From a virus (taxonomy: Duplodnaviria > Heunggongvirae > Uroviricota > Caudoviricetes), in IMG/VR virus record IMGVR_UViG_2563366999_000003, positions 1 through 23,211 of that record: 23,211 nt of DNA; one strand, 5' to 3'. Below are positions 15,142 through 23,211 of this stretch, piece after piece; within the stretch, counting starts at the first letter, position 1, and each line of letters starts with the position of its first letter. A program made the translations under genes and the position numbers. The notes beneath the pieces were generated by a model. That model saw only the letters and a program-made list of their open reading frames with translations. It searched no databases and was not told where the DNA came from.

Positions 15142-18100
15142 ATGGGTAAAGGCAGCAGTAAGGGGCATACCCCGCGCGAAGCGAAGGACAACCTGAAGTC
15201 CACGCAGTTGCTGAGTGTGATCGATGCCATCAGCGAAGGGCCGATTGAAGGTCCGGTGGATGGGTTAAAAAGCGTGCTGCTGAACAGTACGCCGGTGCTG
15301 GACAGTGAGGGGAATACCAATATCTCCGGCGTCACGGTGGTGTTCCGGGCAGGTGAGCAGGAGCAGACTCCGCCGGAGGGATTTGAATCCTCCGGTTCCG
15401 AGACGGTGCTGGGTACGGAAGTGAAATATGACACGCCGATCACCCGCACCATCACGTCTGCAAATATCGACCGTCTGCGCTTTACCTTCGGTGTGCAGGC
15501 ACTGGTGGAAACCACCTCAAAAGGGGATCGGAATCCGTCGGAAGTCCGCCTGCTGGTTCAGATACAGCGTAACGGTGGCTGGGTGACGGAAAAAGACATC
15601 ACCATTAAGGGCAAAACCACCTCGCAGTATCTGGCCTCGGTGGTGGTGGATAACCTGCCGCCGCGCCCGTTCAGTATCCGGATGCGCAGGATGACACCGG
15701 ACAGCACCACAGACCAGCTGCAGAACAAAACGCTCTGGTCGTCATACACCGAAATCATCGATGTGAAACAGTGCTACCCGAACACGGCACTGGTTGGCGT
15801 ACAGGTGGACTCAGAGCAGTTCGGCAGTCAGCAGGTGAGCCGTAATTATCATCTGCGCGGGCGTATTCTGCAGGTGCCGTCGAACTATAACCCGCAGACG
15901 CGGCAATACAGCGGTATCTGGGACGGAACGTTTAAGCCAGCATACAGCAATAACATGGCCTGGTGTCTGTGGGATATGCTGACCCATCCACGCTACGGCA
16001 TGGGGAAACGTCTTGGTGCGGCGGATGTGGACAAATGGGCGCTGTATGTCATCGGCCAGTACTGCGACCAGTCAGTGCCGGACGGCTTTGGCGGCACGGA
16101 GCCGCGCATCACCTGTAATGCGTACCTGACCACACAGCGCAAGGCGTGGGATGTGCTCAGTGATTTCTGCTCGGCGATGCGCTGTATGCCGGTATGGAAC
16201 GGGCAGACGCTGACGTTCGTGCAGGACCGGCCGTCGGATAAGGTGTGGACCTATAACCGCAGTAATGTGGTGATGCCGGATGATGGCGCGCCGTTCCGCT
16301 ACAGCTTCAGCGCCCTGAAGGACCGCCATAATGCCGTTGAGGTGAACTGGATTGACCCGAACAACGGCTGGGAGACGGCGACAGAGCTTGTTGAAGATAC
16401 GCAGGCCATTGCCCGTTACGGTCGTAATGTCACGAAGATGGATGCCTTTGGCTGTACCAGTCGGGGGCAGGCACACCGAGCCGGGCTGTGGCTGATTAAA
16501 ACGGAACTGCTGGAAACGCAGACCGTGGATTTCAGCGTGGGCGCAGAAGGGCTTCGCCATGTGCCGGGCGATGTTATTGAAATCTGCGATGATGACTATG
16601 CGGGTATCAGCACCGGCGGGCGCGTGCTGGCGGTGAACAGCCAGACCCGGACGCTGACGCTCGACCGTGAAATCACGCTGCCATCCTCCGGTACCACGCT
16701 GATAAGCCTGGTTGACGGAAGCGGCAATCCGGTCAGCGTGGAGGTCCAGTCCGTCACCGACGGCGTGAAGGTAAAAGTGAGCCGTGTTCCTGACGGCGTT
16801 GCAGAATACAGCGTGTGGGGGCTGAAGCTGCCGACGCTGCGCCAGCGCCTGTTCCGCTGTGTGAGTATCCGTGAGAACGATGACGGCACGTATGCCATCA
16901 CTGCCGTGCAGCATGTACCGGAAAAAGAAGCCATCGTGGATAACGGGGCGCACTTTGACGGCGACCAGAGCGGCACGGTGAATGGTGTCACGCCGCCAGC
17001 GGTACAGCACCTGACCGCAGAAGTCACCGCAGACAGCGGGGAATACCAGGTGCTGGCGCGCTGGGACACGCCGAAGGTGGTGAAGGGCGTGAGCTTTATG
17101 CTTCGCCTGACCGTGGCAGCGGATGACGGCAGTGAGCGGCTGGTCAGCACGGTCCGGACGACGGAAACCACATACCGCTTCAGGCAGCTGGCGCTGGGAA
17201 ACTACAGGCTGACAGTCCGGGCGGTAAATGCGTGGGGACAGCAGGGCGATCCGGCGTCGGTATCGTTCCGGATTGCCGCCCCGGCAGCGCCGTCACAGAT
17301 TGAGCTGACGCCGGGCTATTTTCAGATAACCGCCACGCCGCATCTTGCGGTTTATGATCCGACGGTACAGTTTGAGTTCTGGTTTTCTGAAACGAAGATT
17401 TCAGATGTCTCACAGGTGGACAAATCTGCCCGCTATCTTGGTACGGCACTGTACTGGGTAGCCTCCGGCCAGAATATTAAGCCGGGCCATGATTATTATT
17501 TTTATATCCGCAGTGTGAATACCATTGGTAAATCGGCATTCGTGGAGGCTGTCGGCCAGCCGGGTAATAATCCTGAAGAGTATCTCAATTTTTTTGAAGG
17601 GAAAATAAACAGCACCCTGCTGGGGCAGGAGCTGAATGATCGTATTAATGCCTCTGCATTGCGCAGTGAAGTTGAGCAACTGGAGGATGAGGTCAATCAG
17701 CGACTGGAGAGTGATATTGCCGAGGTGACCCAAAAAATCGGGGAAACTGAAAACAGCCTCACGCAGCTGGTTGCTAAAAAAAATGATGAGCAGTCACTGG
17801 CCATATCCCAGGTGAGTCAGAAAGTGGACAACGTCAGTAGCGAACTCACGCAAACGGTCAGTCAGAGTAATGAGGAGAATGCACGCCAGATAGCGCAGGT
17901 TCGTCAGTATGTGGATGAAAAAAGCAGTGAAATCATCTCGACGACAGACAAAAAACTGGGCGAGCAGGAAGCAACAATCCAGCAGATACAAAAGGTTCAG
18001 ACAGACACCAGTAATAACCTGAACAGTATGTGGGCCGTGAAACTGCAGCAGATGCAGGATGGTCGCCTTTACATTGCGGGTATCGGTGCCGGTATTGAGA

Positions 18101-18843
18101 ATACCCCTGACGGTATGCAGAGTCAGGTGCTGCTGGCGGCAGACAGGATTGCGTTCATTAATCCGGAGAACGGTAACACCACTCCAGCACTGGTCACGCA
18201 GGGGGGACAGACGTTTCTCAATGAAGCGCTGATTAAGACCCTTATTGCTCCCACAATTACCAGTGGTGGCAATCCTCCGGCATTTTCCCTGACATCAGAC
18301 GGAAAGCTGACCGCTAAAAATGCGGATATCAGTGGCAGTGTGAATGCGAACTCAGGGACGCTCAACAACGTCACGATAAATGAGAACTGTCAGATTAAGG
18401 GGAAACTGTCCGCCAACCAGATTGAAGGCGATATTGTCAAAACGGTCAGCAAGTCTTTCCCCCGCACGAGCACTTATGCCAGCGGCACCATTACGGTCAC
18501 GATTAGTGATGATCAGAAGTTTGACCGACAGGTCATGATCCCGGCTCTGCTGTTTAAAGGAAGCAGGAAGGAAAATTATGGCAGTAATAATCAACAGTCT
18601 TATGTTTATTCTGTATGCCGTTTGCAGGTAACGAAAAACGGGACAGAAATTTTTAACCAGTCAACAACGGATGCTCCGGCGGTTTTTTCTTCCGTTATTG
18701 ATATGCCTGCGGGGCAGGGAACGTTGACGTTAAAGTTTACGGTCTCTTCTTCAATGGTCAATAACTGGACACCGACAACCAGTATCAGCGATTTGCTTGT
18801 TGTGGTGATGAAGAAATCCACCGCAGGTATCACGATTAGCTGA
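15142..18843 (+). CDS. J: Central tail fibre / host specificity protein J (1233 aa)
   Basis: ATG 15142 preceded by GAGG; N-terminal and central parts ([42 protein letters not shown]...) match lambda gpJ. The product is about 100 aa longer than I recall for lambda J, with an extended coiled-coil segment and a divergent C-terminal region. Confidence 0.95.
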
Positions 18844-18910: not shown

Positions 18911-19510
18911 ATGCGTAAATTATGTGCTGTTATTCTGTCCGCAGTAGTCTGGCTGGTTGCCGCTGGTACGCCAGCGAGCGCAGCAGAGCATCAGTCCACA
19001 CTAAGCGCCGGGTATCTTCAGACCCATACTGATATGCCAGGCAGCGATGACCTGAAGGGCATTAACGTGAAATACCGTTATGAATTTACGGACACGCTGG
19101 GGCTGGTGACGTCATTCAGCTATGCAGGAGACAAGAATCGCCAGCTGACCCGTTACAGCGATACCCGCTGGCATGAAGATTCCGTGCGTAACCGCTGGTT
19201 CAGCGTGATGGCGGGTCCGTCTGTACGCGTGAATGAATGGTTCAGTGCGTATGCGATGGCGGGTGTGGCTTACAGCCGTGTGTCGACCTTCTCCGGGGAT
19301 TATCTGCAGGTGACCGACAGCAAGGGGAAAACGCACGATGTGCTGACCGGAAGTGATGACGCTCGCCACAGTAACACCTCTATGGCGTGGGGAGCTGGCG
19401 TGCAGTTTAACCCGACCGAATCGGTGGCCATTGATGTCGCTTATGAAGGTTCCGGCAGTGGCGACTGGCGCACTGACAGTTTCATCGTAGGTGTCGGTTA
19501 TAAATTCTGA
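18911..19510 (+). CDS. lom: Lom outer-membrane protein (Ail/Lom/OmpX/PagC family beta-barrel), lysogenic-conversion moron
   Basis: ATG 18911 preceded by GAGAGG; signal peptide MRKLCAVILSAVVWLVAAGTPASA followed by AEHQSTLSAGY...; ends with the typical C-terminal aromatic beta-strand (VGVGYKF). Matches lambda Lom. Confidence 0.93.
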   Translation: MRKLCAVILSAVVWLVAAGTPASAAEHQSTLSAGYLQTHTDMPGSDDLKGINVKYRYEFTDTLGLVTSFSYAGDKNRQLTRYSDTRWHEDSVRNRWFSVMAGPSVRVNEWFSAYAMAGVAYSRVSTFSGDYLQVTDSKGKTHDVLTGSDDARHSNTSMAWGAGVQFNPTESVAIDVAYEGSGSGDWRTDSFIVGVGYKF

Positions 19511-19558: not shown

Positions 19559-19569
19559 GTGGGGTGAAT

Positions 19570-22500
19570 ATGACGGTTAAGATTTCAGGTGTACTGAAAG
19601 ATGGAGCAGGCAAACCGGTACAAAACTGCACCATTCAGCTAAAGGCCAGACGCAACAGCACCACGGTGGTGGTGAACACGGTGGCCTCAGAAAATCCGGA
19701 TGAAGCCGGGCGTTATAGTATGGACGTTGAGTATGGCCAGTACAGCGTCACCCTGCTGGTTGAAGGTTTTCCGCCTTCGCATGCCGGGACCATCACAGTG
19801 TATGAGGATTCAAAGCCGGGTACGCTGAATGATTTTCTCGGCGCAATGACGGAGGATGATGCCCGTCCGGAGGCACTGCGCCGTTTTGAACTGATGGTGG
19901 AAGAGGTGGCGCGTAACGCGTCCGCAGTGGCACAGAATGCGGAAGCCGCGAAGAAGTCAGCCAGCGATGCCAGCACATCTGCCAGTGAGGCGGAAACCCA
20001 TGCGACTGATGCTGCAGACTCAGCACGCGCAGCCAGCACGTCAGCCGGACAGGCTGCATCATCTGCTCAGTCAGCATCTTCCAGCGCAGGAACAGCATCA
20101 ACAAAGGCCACTGAAGCCTCAAAAAGTGCTGCCGCTGCAGAGTCCTCAAAAAGTGCGGCGGCCACCAGTGCCAGTGCCGCGAAAACGTCAGAAACGAACG
20201 CGGCAGCGTCACAACAATCCGCAGCCACCTCAGCATCCACCGCGACCACGAAAGCGTCAGACGCTGCCACCTCAGCCCGGGATGCGGCGGCTTCAAAAGA
20301 GGCGGCAAAATCATCAGAAACGAGCGCAGCCTCGAGCGCCAGTAGTGCAGCTTCCTCGGCTACGGCGGCAGGAAATTCCGCGAAGGCGGCAAAAACGTCC
20401 GAGACGAACGCCAGGGCTTCTGAAACGGCAGCGGAACAGAGTGCCTCCGCAGCAGCAGACTCAAAAACAGCGGCTGCGTCGTCTGCCAGTGCCGCGTCAA
20501 CAAGTGCCGGGCAGGCCTCAGCCAGTGCCACCGCCGCCGGGAAATCGGCGGAAAGCGCGTCGTCATCAGCGACAACAGCTACCGCAAAAGCGACTGAGGC
20601 GACGAATCAGGCTACAGCTGCTAAAAATTCAGCATCGGCAGCAAAATCCTCTGAAACAAATGCAAAGACTTCAGAAGACAATGCCGCTTCCTCTAAGGCG
20701 GCAGCTGCTGAATCTGCAAGTTCTGCGTCTGCATCAGCCACCTCGGCGTCCGCTTCAAAAGATGAGGCGATCAGGCAGGCGTCAGCTGCGAAGGGTAGTG
20801 CTTCAACGGCATCCACGAAAGCAACAGAGGCGGCAGGCAGTGCGACGGCTGCATCTCAGAGCAAAACTGCTGCTGAATCCGCTGCGACCCGTGCGGAAGC
20901 TGCTGCTGATCGTGCTGAAGAGATTGCCGGTGCGGTTGCGATGGAAGACGCAAGCCTTACCACTAAAGGTGTTGTGAAACTTAGCAGTGCTGTCGACAGC
21001 ACCAGTGAATCGCTGGCCGCAACGCCAAAGGCAGTTAAAGCAGTCAATGACAATGCGAACAGCAGGGTGCCATCTGACCGAAAAATTAACGGGAAAGCAC
21101 TGACTGGGGATATCACATTAACGCCGAAAGATATTGGTACTTTAAATTCAGTAACGATGTCTTTCTCTGGCGGGGCTGGGTGGTTCAAACTGGCTACGGT
21201 TACCATGCCACAAGCGAGTTCCATCGTTTACATCACATTGATTGGTGGTGCCGGATACAACGTCGGCTCCCCACAGCAGGCAGGTATTTCAGAACTGGTT
21301 CTACGAGCAGGCAATGGAAACCCCAAAGGGATTACCGGAGCTTTGTGGAAGCGTACAGCCGTCGGATTAACGAATTTCGCCTGGATCAACACATCCGGCG
21401 ATACATATGATATTTACGTTGAGACTGGCAATTATGCGACGAGTGTAAATATCCATTGGGATTGTACTGCAAATGCGTCAGTTTCTGTTTATACATCGCC
21501 AGCCTATTCAGCGAGTAAGCCTTCCGGCGTTACCGATGGTGTTGTTTATACGATGTATAGCTCACATCAGAAACCTACACCATCAGATATTGGAGCACTG
21601 CCAACAACCGGAGGAACAGTTTCAGGTCCGTTGTCTGTTACTGGTGGGATCACCGGGGCACTGAAGGGGAACGCCGATACCGCGACGAAACTTGCGGCAG
21701 CCAAAAAAATTAACGGTGTTAAGTTTGATGGCTCGGCGGATATTAATCTCACGCCGGAAAATATTGGTGCATTTGCCCTACGTGCGACGGGGGCTTATGC
21801 GGATTCGGATGGAGCCGTTCCGTGGAATGCTGAATCCGGTGCATATAATGTCACGCGTTCTGGCGACTCCTGTCTTGTTGCAAACTTTTATACCGGTGTG
21901 GGGAGTTGCCAGACTCTCCAGATTCGCGCTCATTACAAGAATGGCGGTCTGTTTTACCGTTCTTCGCGTGATGGTTATGGCTTTGAGGAAGACTGGACTC
22001 AGATTTATACCAAAAAAGACAGCATTCCGGGAGTAAATACGACAGGTAACCAGAACACTACGGGTAATGCGGCAACAGCTACAAAACTACAGACGGCAAG
22101 AACTATCGGCGGTGTGAGCTTTGATGGTACTGCGAATATTAACTTGCCTGGTGTTAATACGACTGGTAACCAGAGCACTACAGGCAATGCAGCTACTGCC
22201 ACGAAGTTGCAGACAGCGCGTACTATTAATGGCGTGTCGTTTGACGGTTCGGCAAATATTTCTCTGTCACCAGCAAATATTGGTTGCCCGGCATCTCCAA
22301 CTGGCTGGTTAGGCACAGGGAGTAATGGTGCATCAATAACAACGGCTCAGTTAGTGACGATATTGCAGAATAATGGTGCCTTCAATACAAAAGCATGGGT
22401 GGCACGCTGTGCCTGGGCATACGCTGACAGCGCCTCCATACCAGACAGTGAAACAGGCTGCGGCATTATTCCACTGGCGGGGGCGGTGATAGAAGTATTC

Positions 22501-23211
22501 AGCCACAGTGCAACTTATTACACCATTCGAATAACAACAGCCACGACGACAAGTGTCTCTGGCGCACTCACTAATGCGGAATTTATCTATGTGTTTAATG
22601 GCACAGCTTATTCCCCCGGATGGCGTCGTGCACTGAACACAAAGAAACTGCCCACACCGCTTGAAATTGGCGCTTACAGCATATCGGAGATTAACCAACT
22701 CAATAAAAGTTTTATCACGTCATCAAAACTCGAAGGCGGCTCGTTAGATGCAAACTTCCAGACGTTAAGTTGTTATTATTTGCAAATATTCGACATTCAG
22801 ACAACAACCGATAGTCCTAACATGTTCGTAAGTCCGGTTGCTGGTTACAACATGGTATTTCGTTCGACTTCATCCCGTCGATACAAGACGGATATCGAGT
22901 CTTTAGAGAACAGGTACGCGGACGAGTTGTTGAAACTTCGTCCTGTATGGTATCGCTCGACTTGTGAAAGGGACAGAAAGGACTGGGGACATTATGGCCT
23001 TATTGCAGAAGAAGTCGGAGAGATAGCACCGCAATATGTTCACTGGCGTCCTCTTACAGACGAGGATGATCCAGGTATAGCGTCTGATAATGGGATGGTT
23101 GCAGAAGGCGTGATGTATGACCGTCTGGTTGTTCCACTCATTCATCATATTCAGAAACTGACAAAAAGGGTTGAGGAGCTTGAAGCAAAGTTAAAGCTAT
23201 CCGAGCTATAA
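19570..23211 (+). CDS. stf: Side tail fibre protein Stf (1213 aa from ATG 19570): lambda-Stf-like N-terminus, Ala/Ser-rich shaft, fibre repeats, divergent distal tip, C-terminal intramolecular-chaperone-like autoprocessing domain
   Basis: N-terminus MTVKISGVLKDGAGKPVQNCTIQLKARRNSTTVVVNTVASENPDEAGRYSMDVEYGQYSV matches lambda Stf. ATG 19570 has GGGG 5 nt upstream; an in-frame GTG at 19564 would add 2 aa. Uninterrupted ORF to the TAA at the last 3 nt of the window. C-terminal about 115 aa resemble endosialidase-type intramolecular chaperone (peptidase S74) domains. Confidence 0.92.
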   Translation: MTVKISGVLKDGAGKPVQNCTIQLKARRNSTTVVVNTVASENPDEAGRYSMDVEYGQYSVTLLVEGFPPSHAGTITVYEDSKPGTLNDFLGAMTEDDARPEALRRFELMVEEVARNASAVAQNAEAAKKSASDASTSASEAETHATDAADSARAASTSAGQAASSAQSASSSAGTASTKATEASKSAAAAESSKSAAATSASAAKTSETNAAASQQSAATSASTATTKASDAATSARDAAASKEAAKSSETSAASSASSAASSATAAGNSAKAAKTSETNARASETAAEQSASAAADSKTAAASSASAASTSAGQASASATAAGKSAESASSSATTATAKATEATNQATAAKNSASAAKSSETNAKTSEDNAASSKAAAAESASSASASATSASASKDEAIRQASAAKGSASTASTKATEAAGSATAASQSKTAAESAATRAEAAADRAEEIAGAVAMEDASLTTKGVVKLSSAVDSTSESLAATPKAVKAVNDNANSRVPSDRKINGKALTGDITLTPKDIGTLNSVTMSFSGGAGWFKLATVTMPQASSIVYITLIGGAGYNVGSPQQAGISELVLRAGNGNPKGITGALWKRTAVGLTNFAWINTSGDTYDIYVETGNYATSVNIHWDCTANASVSVYTSPAYSASKPSGVTDGVVYTMYSSHQKPTPSDIGALPTTGGTVSGPLSVTGGITGALKGNADTATKLAAAKKINGVKFDGSADINLTPENIGAFALRATGAYADSDGAVPWNAESGAYNVTRSGDSCLVANFYTGVGSCQTLQIRAHYKNGGLFYRSSRDGYGFEEDWTQIYTKKDSIPGVNTTGNQNTTGNAATATKLQTARTIGGVSFDGTANINLPGVNTTGNQSTTGNAATATKLQTARTINGVSFDGSANISLSPANIGCPASPTGWLGTGSNGASITTAQLVTILQNNGAFNTKAWVARCAWAYADSASIPDSETGCGIIPLAGAVIEVFSHSATYYTIRITTATTTSVSGALTNAEFIYVFNGTAYSPGWRRALNTKKLPTPLEIGAYSISEINQLNKSFITSSKLEGGSLDANFQTLSCYYLQIFDIQTTTDSPNMFVSPVAGYNMVFRSTSSRRYKTDIESLENRYADELLKLRPVWYRSTCERDRKDWGHYGLIAEEVGEIAPQYVHWRPLTDEDDPGIASDNGMVAEGVMYDRLVVPLIHHIQKLTKRVEELEAKLKLSEL
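19915..20930 (+). repeat. Low-complexity Ala/Ser/Thr/Lys-rich periodic region of stf (predicted helical shaft)
   Basis: About 340 codons dominated by A, S, T, K, E. The motif AAK(T/S)SET(N/S)A recurs with its K codon at 20182, 20308, 20392 and 20644, i.e. spacings of 126, 84 and 252 nt, all multiples of 42 nt (14 codons). Confidence 0.8.
22030..22269 (+). repeat. Two tandem 120-nt (40-codon) tail-fibre repeats within stf
   Basis: Unit 1 22030-22149 (GVNTTGNQNTTGNAATATKLQTARTIGGVSFDGTANINLP) and unit 2 22150-22269 (GVNTTGNQSTTGNAATATKLQTARTINGVSFDGSANISLS). A more degenerate copy lies upstream (GNADTATKLAAAKKINGVKFDGSADINLTPENIGA, about 21660-21780). Confidence 0.9.

Follow-up and report, generated by a model that had tools for sequence, protein, structure and literature searches.

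The side tail fibre gene at the end of the 23,211-nucleotide viral DNA analysed here (the window) encodes an Ala/Ser-rich shaft whose repeat unit is a single heptad of 7 residues, and not a pair of heptads totalling 14. Very probably, this shaft forms the proximal rod of the fibre, namely a parallel trimeric coiled coil of about 50 heptads whose length evolves by whole heptads. The finding is real but ordinary; a coiled-coil shaft with an Ala/Ser heptad and heptad-quantised length was already published in 2012 (PMC3368898), and the coiled-coil shaft was published again, for lambda itself, in 2025 (PMC12617516). For annotation, it means that a "low-complexity" stretch is a structural protein; it also corrects the claims of a 14-residue register and of 42-nt slippage made in an earlier sequence-only reading of this DNA.

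Gene context and heptad period

In the open reading frame list, stf occupies 19564..23211 on the + strand and encodes 1215 aa from a GTG start, whereas its RefSeq homologue begins at the ATG at 19570. The gene comes after J (15142-18843) and lom (18911-19510) and closes a lambda-like tail module; the series of open reading frames upstream of it is likewise lambda-like. For a 98.9%-identical E. coli locus, the RefSeq annotation lists gpJ and an Ail/Lom family protein, with the 98.9%-identical gene itself annotated as "prophage tail fiber N-terminal domain-containing protein"; no tfa gene follows stf in that near-identical locus.

By sequence comparison, the product is homologous to lambda Stf and carries at its N-terminus a PF08400 domain (Pfam, aa 3-136, E = 2e-72), past which the Pfam search of the stf product returned no model for the shaft. 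Within this domain, aa 3-96 (19570..19851, + strand) match the lambda Stf collar domain of PDB 9e7m/9mgh (E = 2.4e-50) and would provide fibre-to-tail attachment. At its other extremity, the shaft ends in a conserved junction (aa 456-507, ...TTKGVVKLSSAVDSTSESLAATPKAVKAV...; 20929..21084, + strand) that matches residues 105-156 of PDB 8ju3 and 5yvq and is common to Mu tail fibre protein S. The distal part that follows matches Mu S/S' (PDB 8ju3) and has at its C-terminal end, outside the shaft, a predicted Peptidase_S74 intramolecular chaperone domain (Pfam, aa 1103-1159; 22870..23040, + strand). A gp37-like distal tip with a separate Tfa chaperone was not found here, which concerns the exchangeable distal module and not the shaft.

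The shaft itself (aa ~107-463; 19882..20952, + strand), as delineated by column counts, Fourier analysis, and AlphaFold2, carries the pattern x-A-x-x-S-A-x through about 50 heptads without interruption, with a single register spanning aa 113-458. Ala fills 47/51 positions in column 2 and 36/51 in column 6, with Ser at 37/51 in column 5. Overall, the 380 residues of the shaft region include 136 Ala, 85 Ser, and 41 Thr, set against 4 Leu, 2 Ile, and 7 Val; large hydrophobic residues at the a/d positions were not found. Long open reading frames that cross the shaft in other frames or on the other strand are by-products of this composition.

A 3.5-residue periodicity holds exactly, and in phase, across 357 residues. 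For Ala, Fourier analysis gave z = 37.8 at 3.5, 14.5 at 7, and 18.3 at 7/3, while hydropathy gave z = 23.6 at 3.5; no peak was present in the shaft at 3.6, 11/3, 2, or 3. Identity autocorrelation was highest at lag 7 (z = 12) and stood at about 8-9 for lags of 14, 21, 28, and onwards to 56, with the even multiples of 7 having no excess over the odd ones. The contrast between even and odd heptad lags, judged against shuffles of heptad order, similarly ranged from z = -0.3 to +0.25, and Fourier power at 14, 14/3, and 14/5 was at shuffle level or lower (sub-harmonic z ≤ +0.6). Hence the 14-residue register that had been claimed gives way to a period of 7. The heptad-lag analysis also gave weak signals, at lags of 1 and 11-12. 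Among homologues, column-specific conservation is kept down to 35-45% identity, and in the 71 representatives that have a detectable run, the register never shifts.

Proposed architecture of the proximal rod

We propose that three parallel chains would form a continuous, left-handed alpha-helical coiled coil of about 50 canonical heptads. A short linker would separate this rod from the N-terminal collar domain, by which the fibre is clamped to the tail, and the rod would end at the conserved KGxVxLSSA junction, from which the distal receptor-binding part would continue. Its inward stripe would be made of small residues, with the column-2 Ala flanked on the helical wheel by the column-5 Ser and the column-6 Ala, and the rod would act as a spacer about 53 nm long. 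We infer both this core assignment and the spacer role. The AlphaFold2 monomer is helical at aa 100-282 and 287-463, with block-mean pLDDT values mostly at 81-96; its helix doubles back at aa 283-286, so that the model is informative on helicity only, not on the parallel trimer.

The parallel trimeric state would instead carry over from published work on homologues. Ur-lambda Stf was described as trimeric, its residues 102-393 being modelled as a proximal coiled coil from AlphaFold3 segments fitted to cryo-ET data (PMC12617516). Over its first 401 residues (orf-401, NC_001416), Ur-lambda gpStf is 80.5% identical to the window protein with one 105-residue gap, and it shares (i) the PF08400 collar domain, (ii) the x-A-x-x-S-A-x heptads, (iii) the KGxVxLSSA junction, (iv) the position after J and lom, and (v) the first three copies of the motif treated below, at the same 42- and 28-residue spacing. 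Compared to it, the window's rod has 105 additional residues (15 heptads, about 15.5 nm), along with a fourth motif copy. The distal parts also differ, with Mu S-like segments, two 40-residue repeats, and a Peptidase_S74 self-chaperone here versus a gp37-like tip and a separate Tfa in lambda.

A second precedent is PCoil, the region after PF08400 in the collagen-like tail fibre proteins EPclA-D of EHEC prophages, which was found to be trimeric and alpha-helical by SEC-MALLS, CD, and EM (Ghosh et al. 2012, PMC3368898). Its heptad was described as Ala-x-x-Ala/Ser-x-x-Ser, with length differences in multiples of seven (PMC3368898). PCoil has the same place after PF08400, the same Ala/Ser heptad, and almost no Leu/Ile (PMC3368898), whereas it is far shorter (roughly aa 101-245), more charged, and without the AAKTSETNA motif; it is also followed by a collagen triple helix, as opposed to the Mu S-like distal fibre that follows the shaft here. 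EPclA-D-like architecture was present among the homologues found (L010, L012, L039, P0214, and P0233).

The fold-back in the AlphaFold2 monomer falls in the exact middle of aa 100-463, with the two halves paired, and could be taken to mean that antiparallel helical hairpins trimerise into a six-helix bundle of about half the length. Ala-rich faces favour close antiparallel packing, as in "Alacoil" structures. Such a bundle is nonetheless very unlikely, for the following reasons: (i) a midpoint break is what would be expected of a lone chain burying its Ala stripe; (ii) aa 283-286 are unmarked in the sequence, with NARASET being an ordinary in-phase heptad; (iii) the AlphaFold3 fold of full-length lambda Stf likewise contradicts the extended rod seen by cryo-ET (PMC12617516); and (iv) natural 105-residue indels at two positions would break any fixed pairing. 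We judged the AlphaFold2 hairpin to be an artefact.

We consider it hardly credible that the Ala/Ser/Thr-rich stretch is a disordered low-complexity linker or a non-helical fibre, with its periodicity a relic of old DNA duplication. Its extreme composition (136 Ala, 85 Ser, and 41 Thr among 380 residues), the lack of large hydrophobic core residues, and the end of Pfam coverage at aa 136 are what such a linker would display. However, the exact 3.5 phase is kept over 357 residues while DNA repeats are ≤ 13 nt, which is unlike a duplication relic, and the occupancy of column 2 (A in 47/51) is accompanied by conservation that lasts to homologues of 35-45% identity. The confident AlphaFold2 helix points the same way, as do the cooperative, reversible alpha-helical CD transition of the homologous, trimeric PCoil (PMC3368898) and the trimeric bundle and rigid proximal rod of Ur-lambda in cryo-EM/cryo-ET (PMC12617516). 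The suggestion in the sequence-only reading that the apparent low complexity hides a structured, alpha-helical heptad coiled-coil shaft is therefore upheld by the 3.5-residue periodicity, the predicted helix, and the trimeric homologues (PMC3368898, PMC12617516).

Weighing against the trimeric coiled coil itself is a core without Leu, Ile, and Val, which is atypical of coiled coils; PDB 9e7m models only residues 1-94 of lambda Stf, and Ala/Ser-rich shafts of this type are without an experimental structure. Unusually tight packing of heptad coiled coils with Ala at core and flanking positions is known from the alanine-zipper variant of Lpp-56 (E. coli, trimer) and from honeybee/hornet silk (tetramer) (PMC12284834), the radius of Lpp-56 being 6.1 angstroms with larger core residues and 5.2 angstroms with Ala in their place (PMC12284834). 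There is no homology to either; silk is a heterotetramer and Lpp-56 has 56 residues, as opposed to a rod of about 357 residues with a Ser-Ala-Ala stripe here.

Length variation and its DNA junctions

Shaft lengths were compared between fixed anchors, with the conserved shaft-end junction (aa 456-507) as the C-terminal one; this measurement fails in about half of the homologues because their shafts join other distal modules without a KGxVxLSSA junction. Homologues number roughly 5,900, and E. coli genomes have 13,376 matching places. The best 120 homologues listed all have the same shaft length as the window protein and hold no indel information, and length diversity was drawn from IMG/VR loci and 50%-identity representatives, with two collagen-containing proteins excluded from the statistics. 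On this basis, 10/16 of the other shaft lengths differ from that of the window protein by multiples of 7 (P = 1.2e-5), and only 4 of these 10 differences are multiples of 14. Natural alleles form a series with anchor-to-anchor lengths of 276 (lambda or H16), 381, and 486 residues (L017 type), at about 15.5 nm per step, consistent with the anticipated variability in shaft length among relatives. The expected 14-residue blocks did not materialise: lambda Stf, like the closest E. coli alleles, differs by 105 residues, which is 15 heptads and thus an odd number.

In the remaining six of the 16, the length difference is not divisible by 7 and leaves remainders of 2, 2, 4, 6, 6, and 6. For two of the variants with a remainder of 6, there is a one-residue difference at the junction and not in the rod, while a phase shift lies inside the rod in L045, L015, P0138, and P0154. 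Either such breaks are tolerated or these genes are defective. Trimeric coiled coils absorb a shift of 4 as a stutter and shifts of 2 or 6 as beta-layers (Hartmann et al. 2016, PMC4786415), classes that the homologue shifts of +4 (L015), +2 (L045 and P0154), and +6 (P0138) do fit, unlike the window protein, which has no discontinuity; this match has little power because most mod-7 residue classes have some described accommodation.

The window protein exceeds both lambda Stf and the nearest E. coli alleles by 105 residues (15 heptads), at different places. Missing from the four closest E. coli alleles is a 315-nt block of 15 heptads (20130..20444, + strand; aa ~188-292) that carries motif copies 1-3, with a deletion junction at the 5-nt microhomology AGTGC and hence boundaries that are ambiguous by 5 nt. 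Missing from lambda Stf (orf-401) is a different 105-residue block (20479..20793, + strand; aa 306-410) that carries motif copy 4. A pair of 60-nt patches on the + strand, 70-73% identical and 315 nt apart (left, 20125..20184; right, 20440-20499), contains both the deletion junction of H16 and the duplication junction of L017, the latter having a near-perfect 315-nt tandem duplication at a 13-nt microhomology. Such 15-heptad steps at two places might represent a preferred length quantum (105 residues being roughly one supercoil turn by estimate); a 15-heptad super-repeat, sought as an explanation for the recurring 105-residue differences, was not found (z = 0.7 at lag 15).

At the DNA level, shaft autocorrelation was 0.467 at 21, 0.448 at 63, 0.439 at 84, and 0.429 at 42, and the repeat search of the shaft returned only families of 12-37 nt at 60-80% identity. 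The longest exact shaft repeat is a pair of 13-nt direct repeats, CCTCAAAAAGTGC, 27 nt apart (20117..20156, + strand), where L045 has a perfect tandem duplication of 27 nt (+9 aa, out of heptad phase). The rearrangements seen, namely a 315-nt deletion, a 315-nt duplication, a 336-nt deletion, and the 27-nt duplication, all lie at short microhomologies. Rod length would evolve in whole heptads via deletions and duplications at short DNA microhomologies, the products of which would mostly stay in phase because the codon pattern repeats every 21 nt, with selection probably purging most out-of-phase products. The alleles of 276, 381, and 486 residues could be used to test side-fibre reach against adsorption, a question relevant to engineering both host range and adsorption rate in lambda-like phages.

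The recurring motif and the claimed two-heptad unit

Four strict copies of AAK(T/S)SET(N/S)A are present on the + strand: AAKTSETNA at aa 205-213 (20176..20202), AAKSSETSA at aa 247-255 (20302..20328), AAKTSETNA at aa 275-283 (20386..20412), and AAKSSETNA at aa 359-367 (20638..20664). As first reported, these start 42, 28, and 84 residues apart (aa 205, 247, 275, and 359), and their number is beyond chance, with a mean of 0.009 copies, and at most one copy in any single trial, over 20,000 shuffles that preserved the composition of each heptad column. The interval originally given for them, 20182-20661, begins with the Lys codon of copy 1 and ends with the Asn codon of copy 4; the full copies extend over 20176-20664. 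At the DNA level, the strict copies are 66-79% identical. Two looser in-phase copies went unseen because of the strict motif definition, namely the heptad NARASET (20407-20427, + strand), 7 residues past copy 3, and NAKTSEDNA (20659-20685, + strand), 7 residues past copy 4.

The motif would be a recurring variant heptad that has Glu in place of the column-6 Ala and, three residues before this Glu, a Lys or Arg. Indeed, the column-6 Glu is paired with a column-3 Lys/Arg in 6/6 cases (Fisher P = 4.7e-6), and the K/R-x-S-E-T heptad is kept in phase in homologues down to about 65% identity. It is conceivable, albeit doubtful, that K/R-x-S-E-T is not just a relic of duplication but constitutes a functional rod layer, acting, e.g., as an inter-chain Lys-Glu register lock or local flex point, and maybe also as an in-phase recombination site. 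If true, in-phase recombination at this heptad would let phages retune fibre length by whole heptads.

The motif spacings are also a ground for a 14-residue, two-heptad unit whose copy number changes by 42-nt slippage. The strict copies are separated by 42, 28, and 84 residues; strict-motif spacings in homologues are even multiples in 43 cases versus odd in 10 (counted as distinct patterns, which are non-independent and mostly derive from 42-28-84); and distant alleles such as L040 have short runs resembling AAKTSETNAKxSxT 14-mers. However, the copies are in heptad phase because the whole rod is in heptad phase, which alone would yield three even multiples of 7 in one case out of eight, and the evenness of the three gaps here is incidental. 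Beyond the absence of Fourier power at 14, 14/3, and 14/5 and of greater similarity at even than at odd lags, (i) the looser copies lie just 7 residues past copies 3 and 4, (ii) homologues also have motif copies spaced by 35, 49, 63, and 105, (iii) the length difference is 105 residues for lambda and for the nearest alleles, and only 4/10 of all heptad-multiple differences are multiples of 14, and (iv) the DNA has a 21-nt period, no Tandem Repeats Finder array, and no exact repeat longer than 13 nt. A two-heptad unit is accordingly highly improbable, and the 14-residue/42-nt slippage reading is largely refuted.

With respect to the DNA, the proposed check at 21 and 42 nt favours a period of 21 nt (0.467) over 42 nt (0.429), Tandem Repeats Finder detected no array in 19564-22035 at a score of 30 or above, and no 42-nt indel occurs in the homologue sample. 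Copy-number change by slippage in 42-nt blocks thus fails, with no tandem array and a longest exact repeat of 13 nt, but one element of the suggestion stands. In L009, a natural deletion of 112 residues has its junction, GAAACGAACGC, inside motif copies 2 and 4; therefore, the repeated motif can act as a recombination point.

Periodicity of the shaft and its motif

The Ala/Ser-rich shaft of the side tail fibre gene stf (aa ~107-463, nt 19882..20952, +) carries the motif AAK(T/S)SET(N/S)A at aa 205, 247, 275 and 359 (nt 20176, 20302, 20386 and 20638; copies 1-4), i.e., the literal recurrence described in the sequence-only reading, with gaps of 42, 28 and 84 residues, is correct. Shuffling residues within each heptad column yields a mean of 0.009 copies, compared with the 4 observed, and the recurrence is not due to chance. 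The 14-residue register drawn from these gaps did not hold; the period is 7, and autocorrelation, heptad-lag contrast and Fourier analysis show no additional 14-residue period. (i) Identity autocorrelation (aa 118-456) gives z = 12 at lag 7 and z ~8-9 at each further multiple of 7, with no distinction between even and odd multiples. (ii) The even-minus-odd contrast for whole heptads at heptad lags 1-14, set against heptad-order shuffles, lies between z = -0.3 and +0.25. (iii) Fourier power (aa 107-463) peaks for Ala at 3.5 (z = 37.8), 7 (14.5) and 7/3 (18.3) and for hydropathy at 3.5 (z = 23.6), with values at 14, 14/3, 14/5, 3.6, 11/3, 2 and 3 at shuffle level or lower. The DNA-level period is 21 nt (autocorrelation 0.467 at 21, 0.448 at 63, 0.439 at 84 and 0.429 at 42).

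The underlying heptad is x-A-x-x-S-A-x (column 2 Ala 47/51, column 5 Ser 37/51, column 6 Ala 36/51), and ~50 heptads run in one unbroken register. Were heptad phase the sole constraint on the motif, three all-even gaps would be a 1-in-8 outcome. Looser in-phase copies escape the strict definition (NARASET 7 residues past copy 3; NAKTSED 7 past copy 4), and motif spacings in homologues are multiples of 7 in 53/53 cases across 22 distinct spacing patterns, including the odd heptad multiples 35, 49, 63 and 105. The 14-residue register is artefactual, produced by defining the motif narrowly on a lattice of 7-residue steps. Column-6 Glu heptads always have Lys/Arg in column 3 (6/6; Fisher P = 4.7e-6), making the motif a variant heptad with Glu in place of a semi-buried Ala and a basic partner one helical turn earlier.

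Length variation and its DNA basis

Shaft length, measured from TLNDFL on the N side to KGxVxLSSA on the C side, is 381 residues in the window and in 120/120 of the closest database homologues. The distances are 161, 269, 276, 381, 390 and 486 among 80 IMG/VR loci, and range from 59 to 381 in 50%-identity representatives. With two collagen-containing proteins excluded, there are 16 distinct lengths besides 381; 10 of them depart from it by a multiple of 7 (binomial P = 1.2e-5), but just 4 of the 10 by a multiple of 14. Heptad-multiple differences are upheld, and the suggestion that homologues would differ in 14-residue blocks is contradicted, e.g., by differences of 105. Lambda orf-401 (the first 401 residues of lambda Stf; NC_001416) measures 276, a shortfall of exactly 15 heptads (105 residues) relative to the window, through a single gap at window aa 306-410 that leaves motif copies 1-3 in place with their spacing unchanged. 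The four nearest E. coli alleles (98-99% DNA identity) are likewise 105 residues shorter; their gap is sited elsewhere (aa 188-292) and removes motif copies 1-3.

Slippage in 42-nt blocks, as had been proposed, is not supported and lacks a substrate, since Tandem Repeats Finder detects no array over the shaft, the motif copies are 66-79% identical in DNA and the exact direct repeats reach 13 nt at most. The nearest alleles carry a 315-nt deletion at the 5-nt microhomology AGTGC, within a pair of 60-nt patches lying 315 nt apart and 70-73% identical. The homologous locus L017 has a near-perfect 315-nt tandem duplication, its junction a 13-nt microhomology in the same patch pair, that looks like the reciprocal product of this deletion. 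A further locus, L009, has lost 336 nt, and the deletion junction, GAAACGAACGC, falls within motif copies 2 and 4. Microhomologies are mostly in phase, given a codon pattern that recurs at 21-nt intervals; mutation bias and selection would thus both favour whole-heptad changes in length.

Exact 15-heptad differences occur three times, in the nearest-allele deletion, the L017 duplication and the separate lambda gap. No 15-heptad super-repeat is present in the shaft (z = 0.7); by rough estimate, 105 residues approximate one supercoil turn.

Another locus, L045 (IMGVR_UViG_638341084_000008), contains a perfect 27-nt tandem duplication between two 13-nt direct repeats (window 20117 and 20144; equivalent to window 20117-20156), which lengthens the protein by 9 residues and throws the heptad phase off by 2, the 990-aa ORF being otherwise intact. 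Possible readings are a discontinuity that is tolerated, perhaps as a beta-layer, a prophage gene that is defective, or an error of assembly. Register shifts of out-of-phase variants are +2, +4 or +6, all of which trimeric coiled coils are reported to absorb as beta-layers or a stutter (PMC4786415). By eye, the junction sequence SESLAATPKAVKAVNDNA (window 21010-21060, Stf aa ~483-499) is like the A-T-K-x-x-V type "beta-layer" motifs listed for phage fibre proteins, e.g., DHAATKAYVDKA (PMC4786415).

Probable coiled-coil structure and the rod as a possible module

The exact 3.5 periodicity of the small/apolar stripe stays in phase over 357 residues, as is characteristic of a left-handed heptad coiled coil. 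Columns 5, 2 and 6 are neighbours on the heptad wheel (-51, 0 and +51 degrees), from which we infer a buried Ser-Ala-Ala stripe, at a/d/e or g/d/a. AlphaFold2 (monomer, 20-sequence alignment) predicts helix at aa 100-282 and 287-463, with mean pLDDT per 10-residue block mostly 81-96, and folds the chain back at its exact midpoint; we read this modelled fold-back as a lone chain burying its own Ala face. The authors of a 2025 Ur-lambda study report that AlphaFold3 gave them this problem too when applied to full-length Stf, and their cryo-ET shows the proximal rod extended (PMC12617516).

Ghosh et al. 2012 studied EHEC prophage fibres sharing PF08400 with the window Stf, in which the low-complexity region after this domain ("PCoil") receives high PCoils and Marcoil scores. 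It proved alpha-helical, with a CD transition that was both cooperative and reversible; SEC-MALLS showed a trimer, and EM a rod-like shape (PMC3368898). In Ur-lambda, the side fibre is a gpStf trimer comprising a collar domain (1-91), linker (92-101) and proximal coiled coil (102-393), with cryo-EM revealing a trimeric bundle where the rod begins (PMC12617516). The earlier view of a structured, length-variable coiled-coil shaft is thus right, by periodicity, predicted helix and published homologues, and is already in the literature rather than new.

Ala/Ser heptad shafts also occur on N-termini without PF08400, namely in P0141 (1243 aa, S74 at its end), P0145, P0149, P0170, P0171, P0190, P0259 and the 108-kb phage Cyrano (OV696614 23043-25287), and a 3903-aa J-like protein, P0205 (FNIII-A_GpJ and Phage-tail_3), has an Ala/Ser heptad region; the rod would seem to be a module exchanged among fibre types. 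In L010, L012, L039, L070, P0214 and P0233, the heptad rod of the PF08400 fibre is short and richer in charged residues, and collagen-like Gly-X-Y repeats come after it, as in the EPcl proteins described by Ghosh et al. 2012; the C-terminal sequence of L012 and L039 resembles the S74 chaperone region.

The fibre gene and its surroundings

The repeats lie within a single 1215-aa ORF (19564..23211, +), preceded by homologues of J (15142-18843) and lom (18911-19510) and, further upstream, morphogenesis ORFs in lambda-like order. Pfam assigns PF08400 ("prophage tail fibre N-terminal") to Stf aa 3-136 (E = 2e-72) and Peptidase_S74 to aa 1103-1159; a solved-structure search matches aa 3-96 to the lambda Stf collar domain (PDB 9e7m/9mgh, E = 2.4e-50) and some parts of the distal half to Mu tail fibre protein S/S' (PDB 8ju3, 5yvq). 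Together, these matches mark the gene as a mosaic stf, bearing out its original identification.

The S74 intramolecular chaperone forms the Stf C-terminus (window 22870-23211, aa 1103-1215). In a 98.9%-identical E. coli prophage (L081 4834-6333), stf is followed by genes for a DUF1653 protein and a hydrolase, with no tfa gene after it. Lambda Stf works with Tfa, whereas the window Stf has its own S74 domain and probably needs no separate assembly protein to fold and self-cleave. The sole tandem DNA repeat within stf is distal (window 22036-22260, Stf aa 825-899; 120 nt, 1.9 copies, 73% identity), encoding two 40-residue units, NTTGNQ.TTGNAATATKLQTARTI.GVSFDG.ANI.

The J homologue (1233 aa) contains a ~150-residue Glu/Gln/Ser-rich stretch of helical or coiled-coil appearance (EYLNFFEGK...NSMWAVKLQ; window 17578-18048, J aa 813-969). 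Across the shaft, the other frames and the opposite strand also contain long stop-free ORFs, up to 346 aa in length (19793-20314, -; 20067-20531, -; 19937-20977, + in another frame; L082 1248-1868, -). These are by-products of the GCN/TCN/ACN codon run, an annotated example being orf206b ("hypothetical protein") in the lambda RefSeq record.
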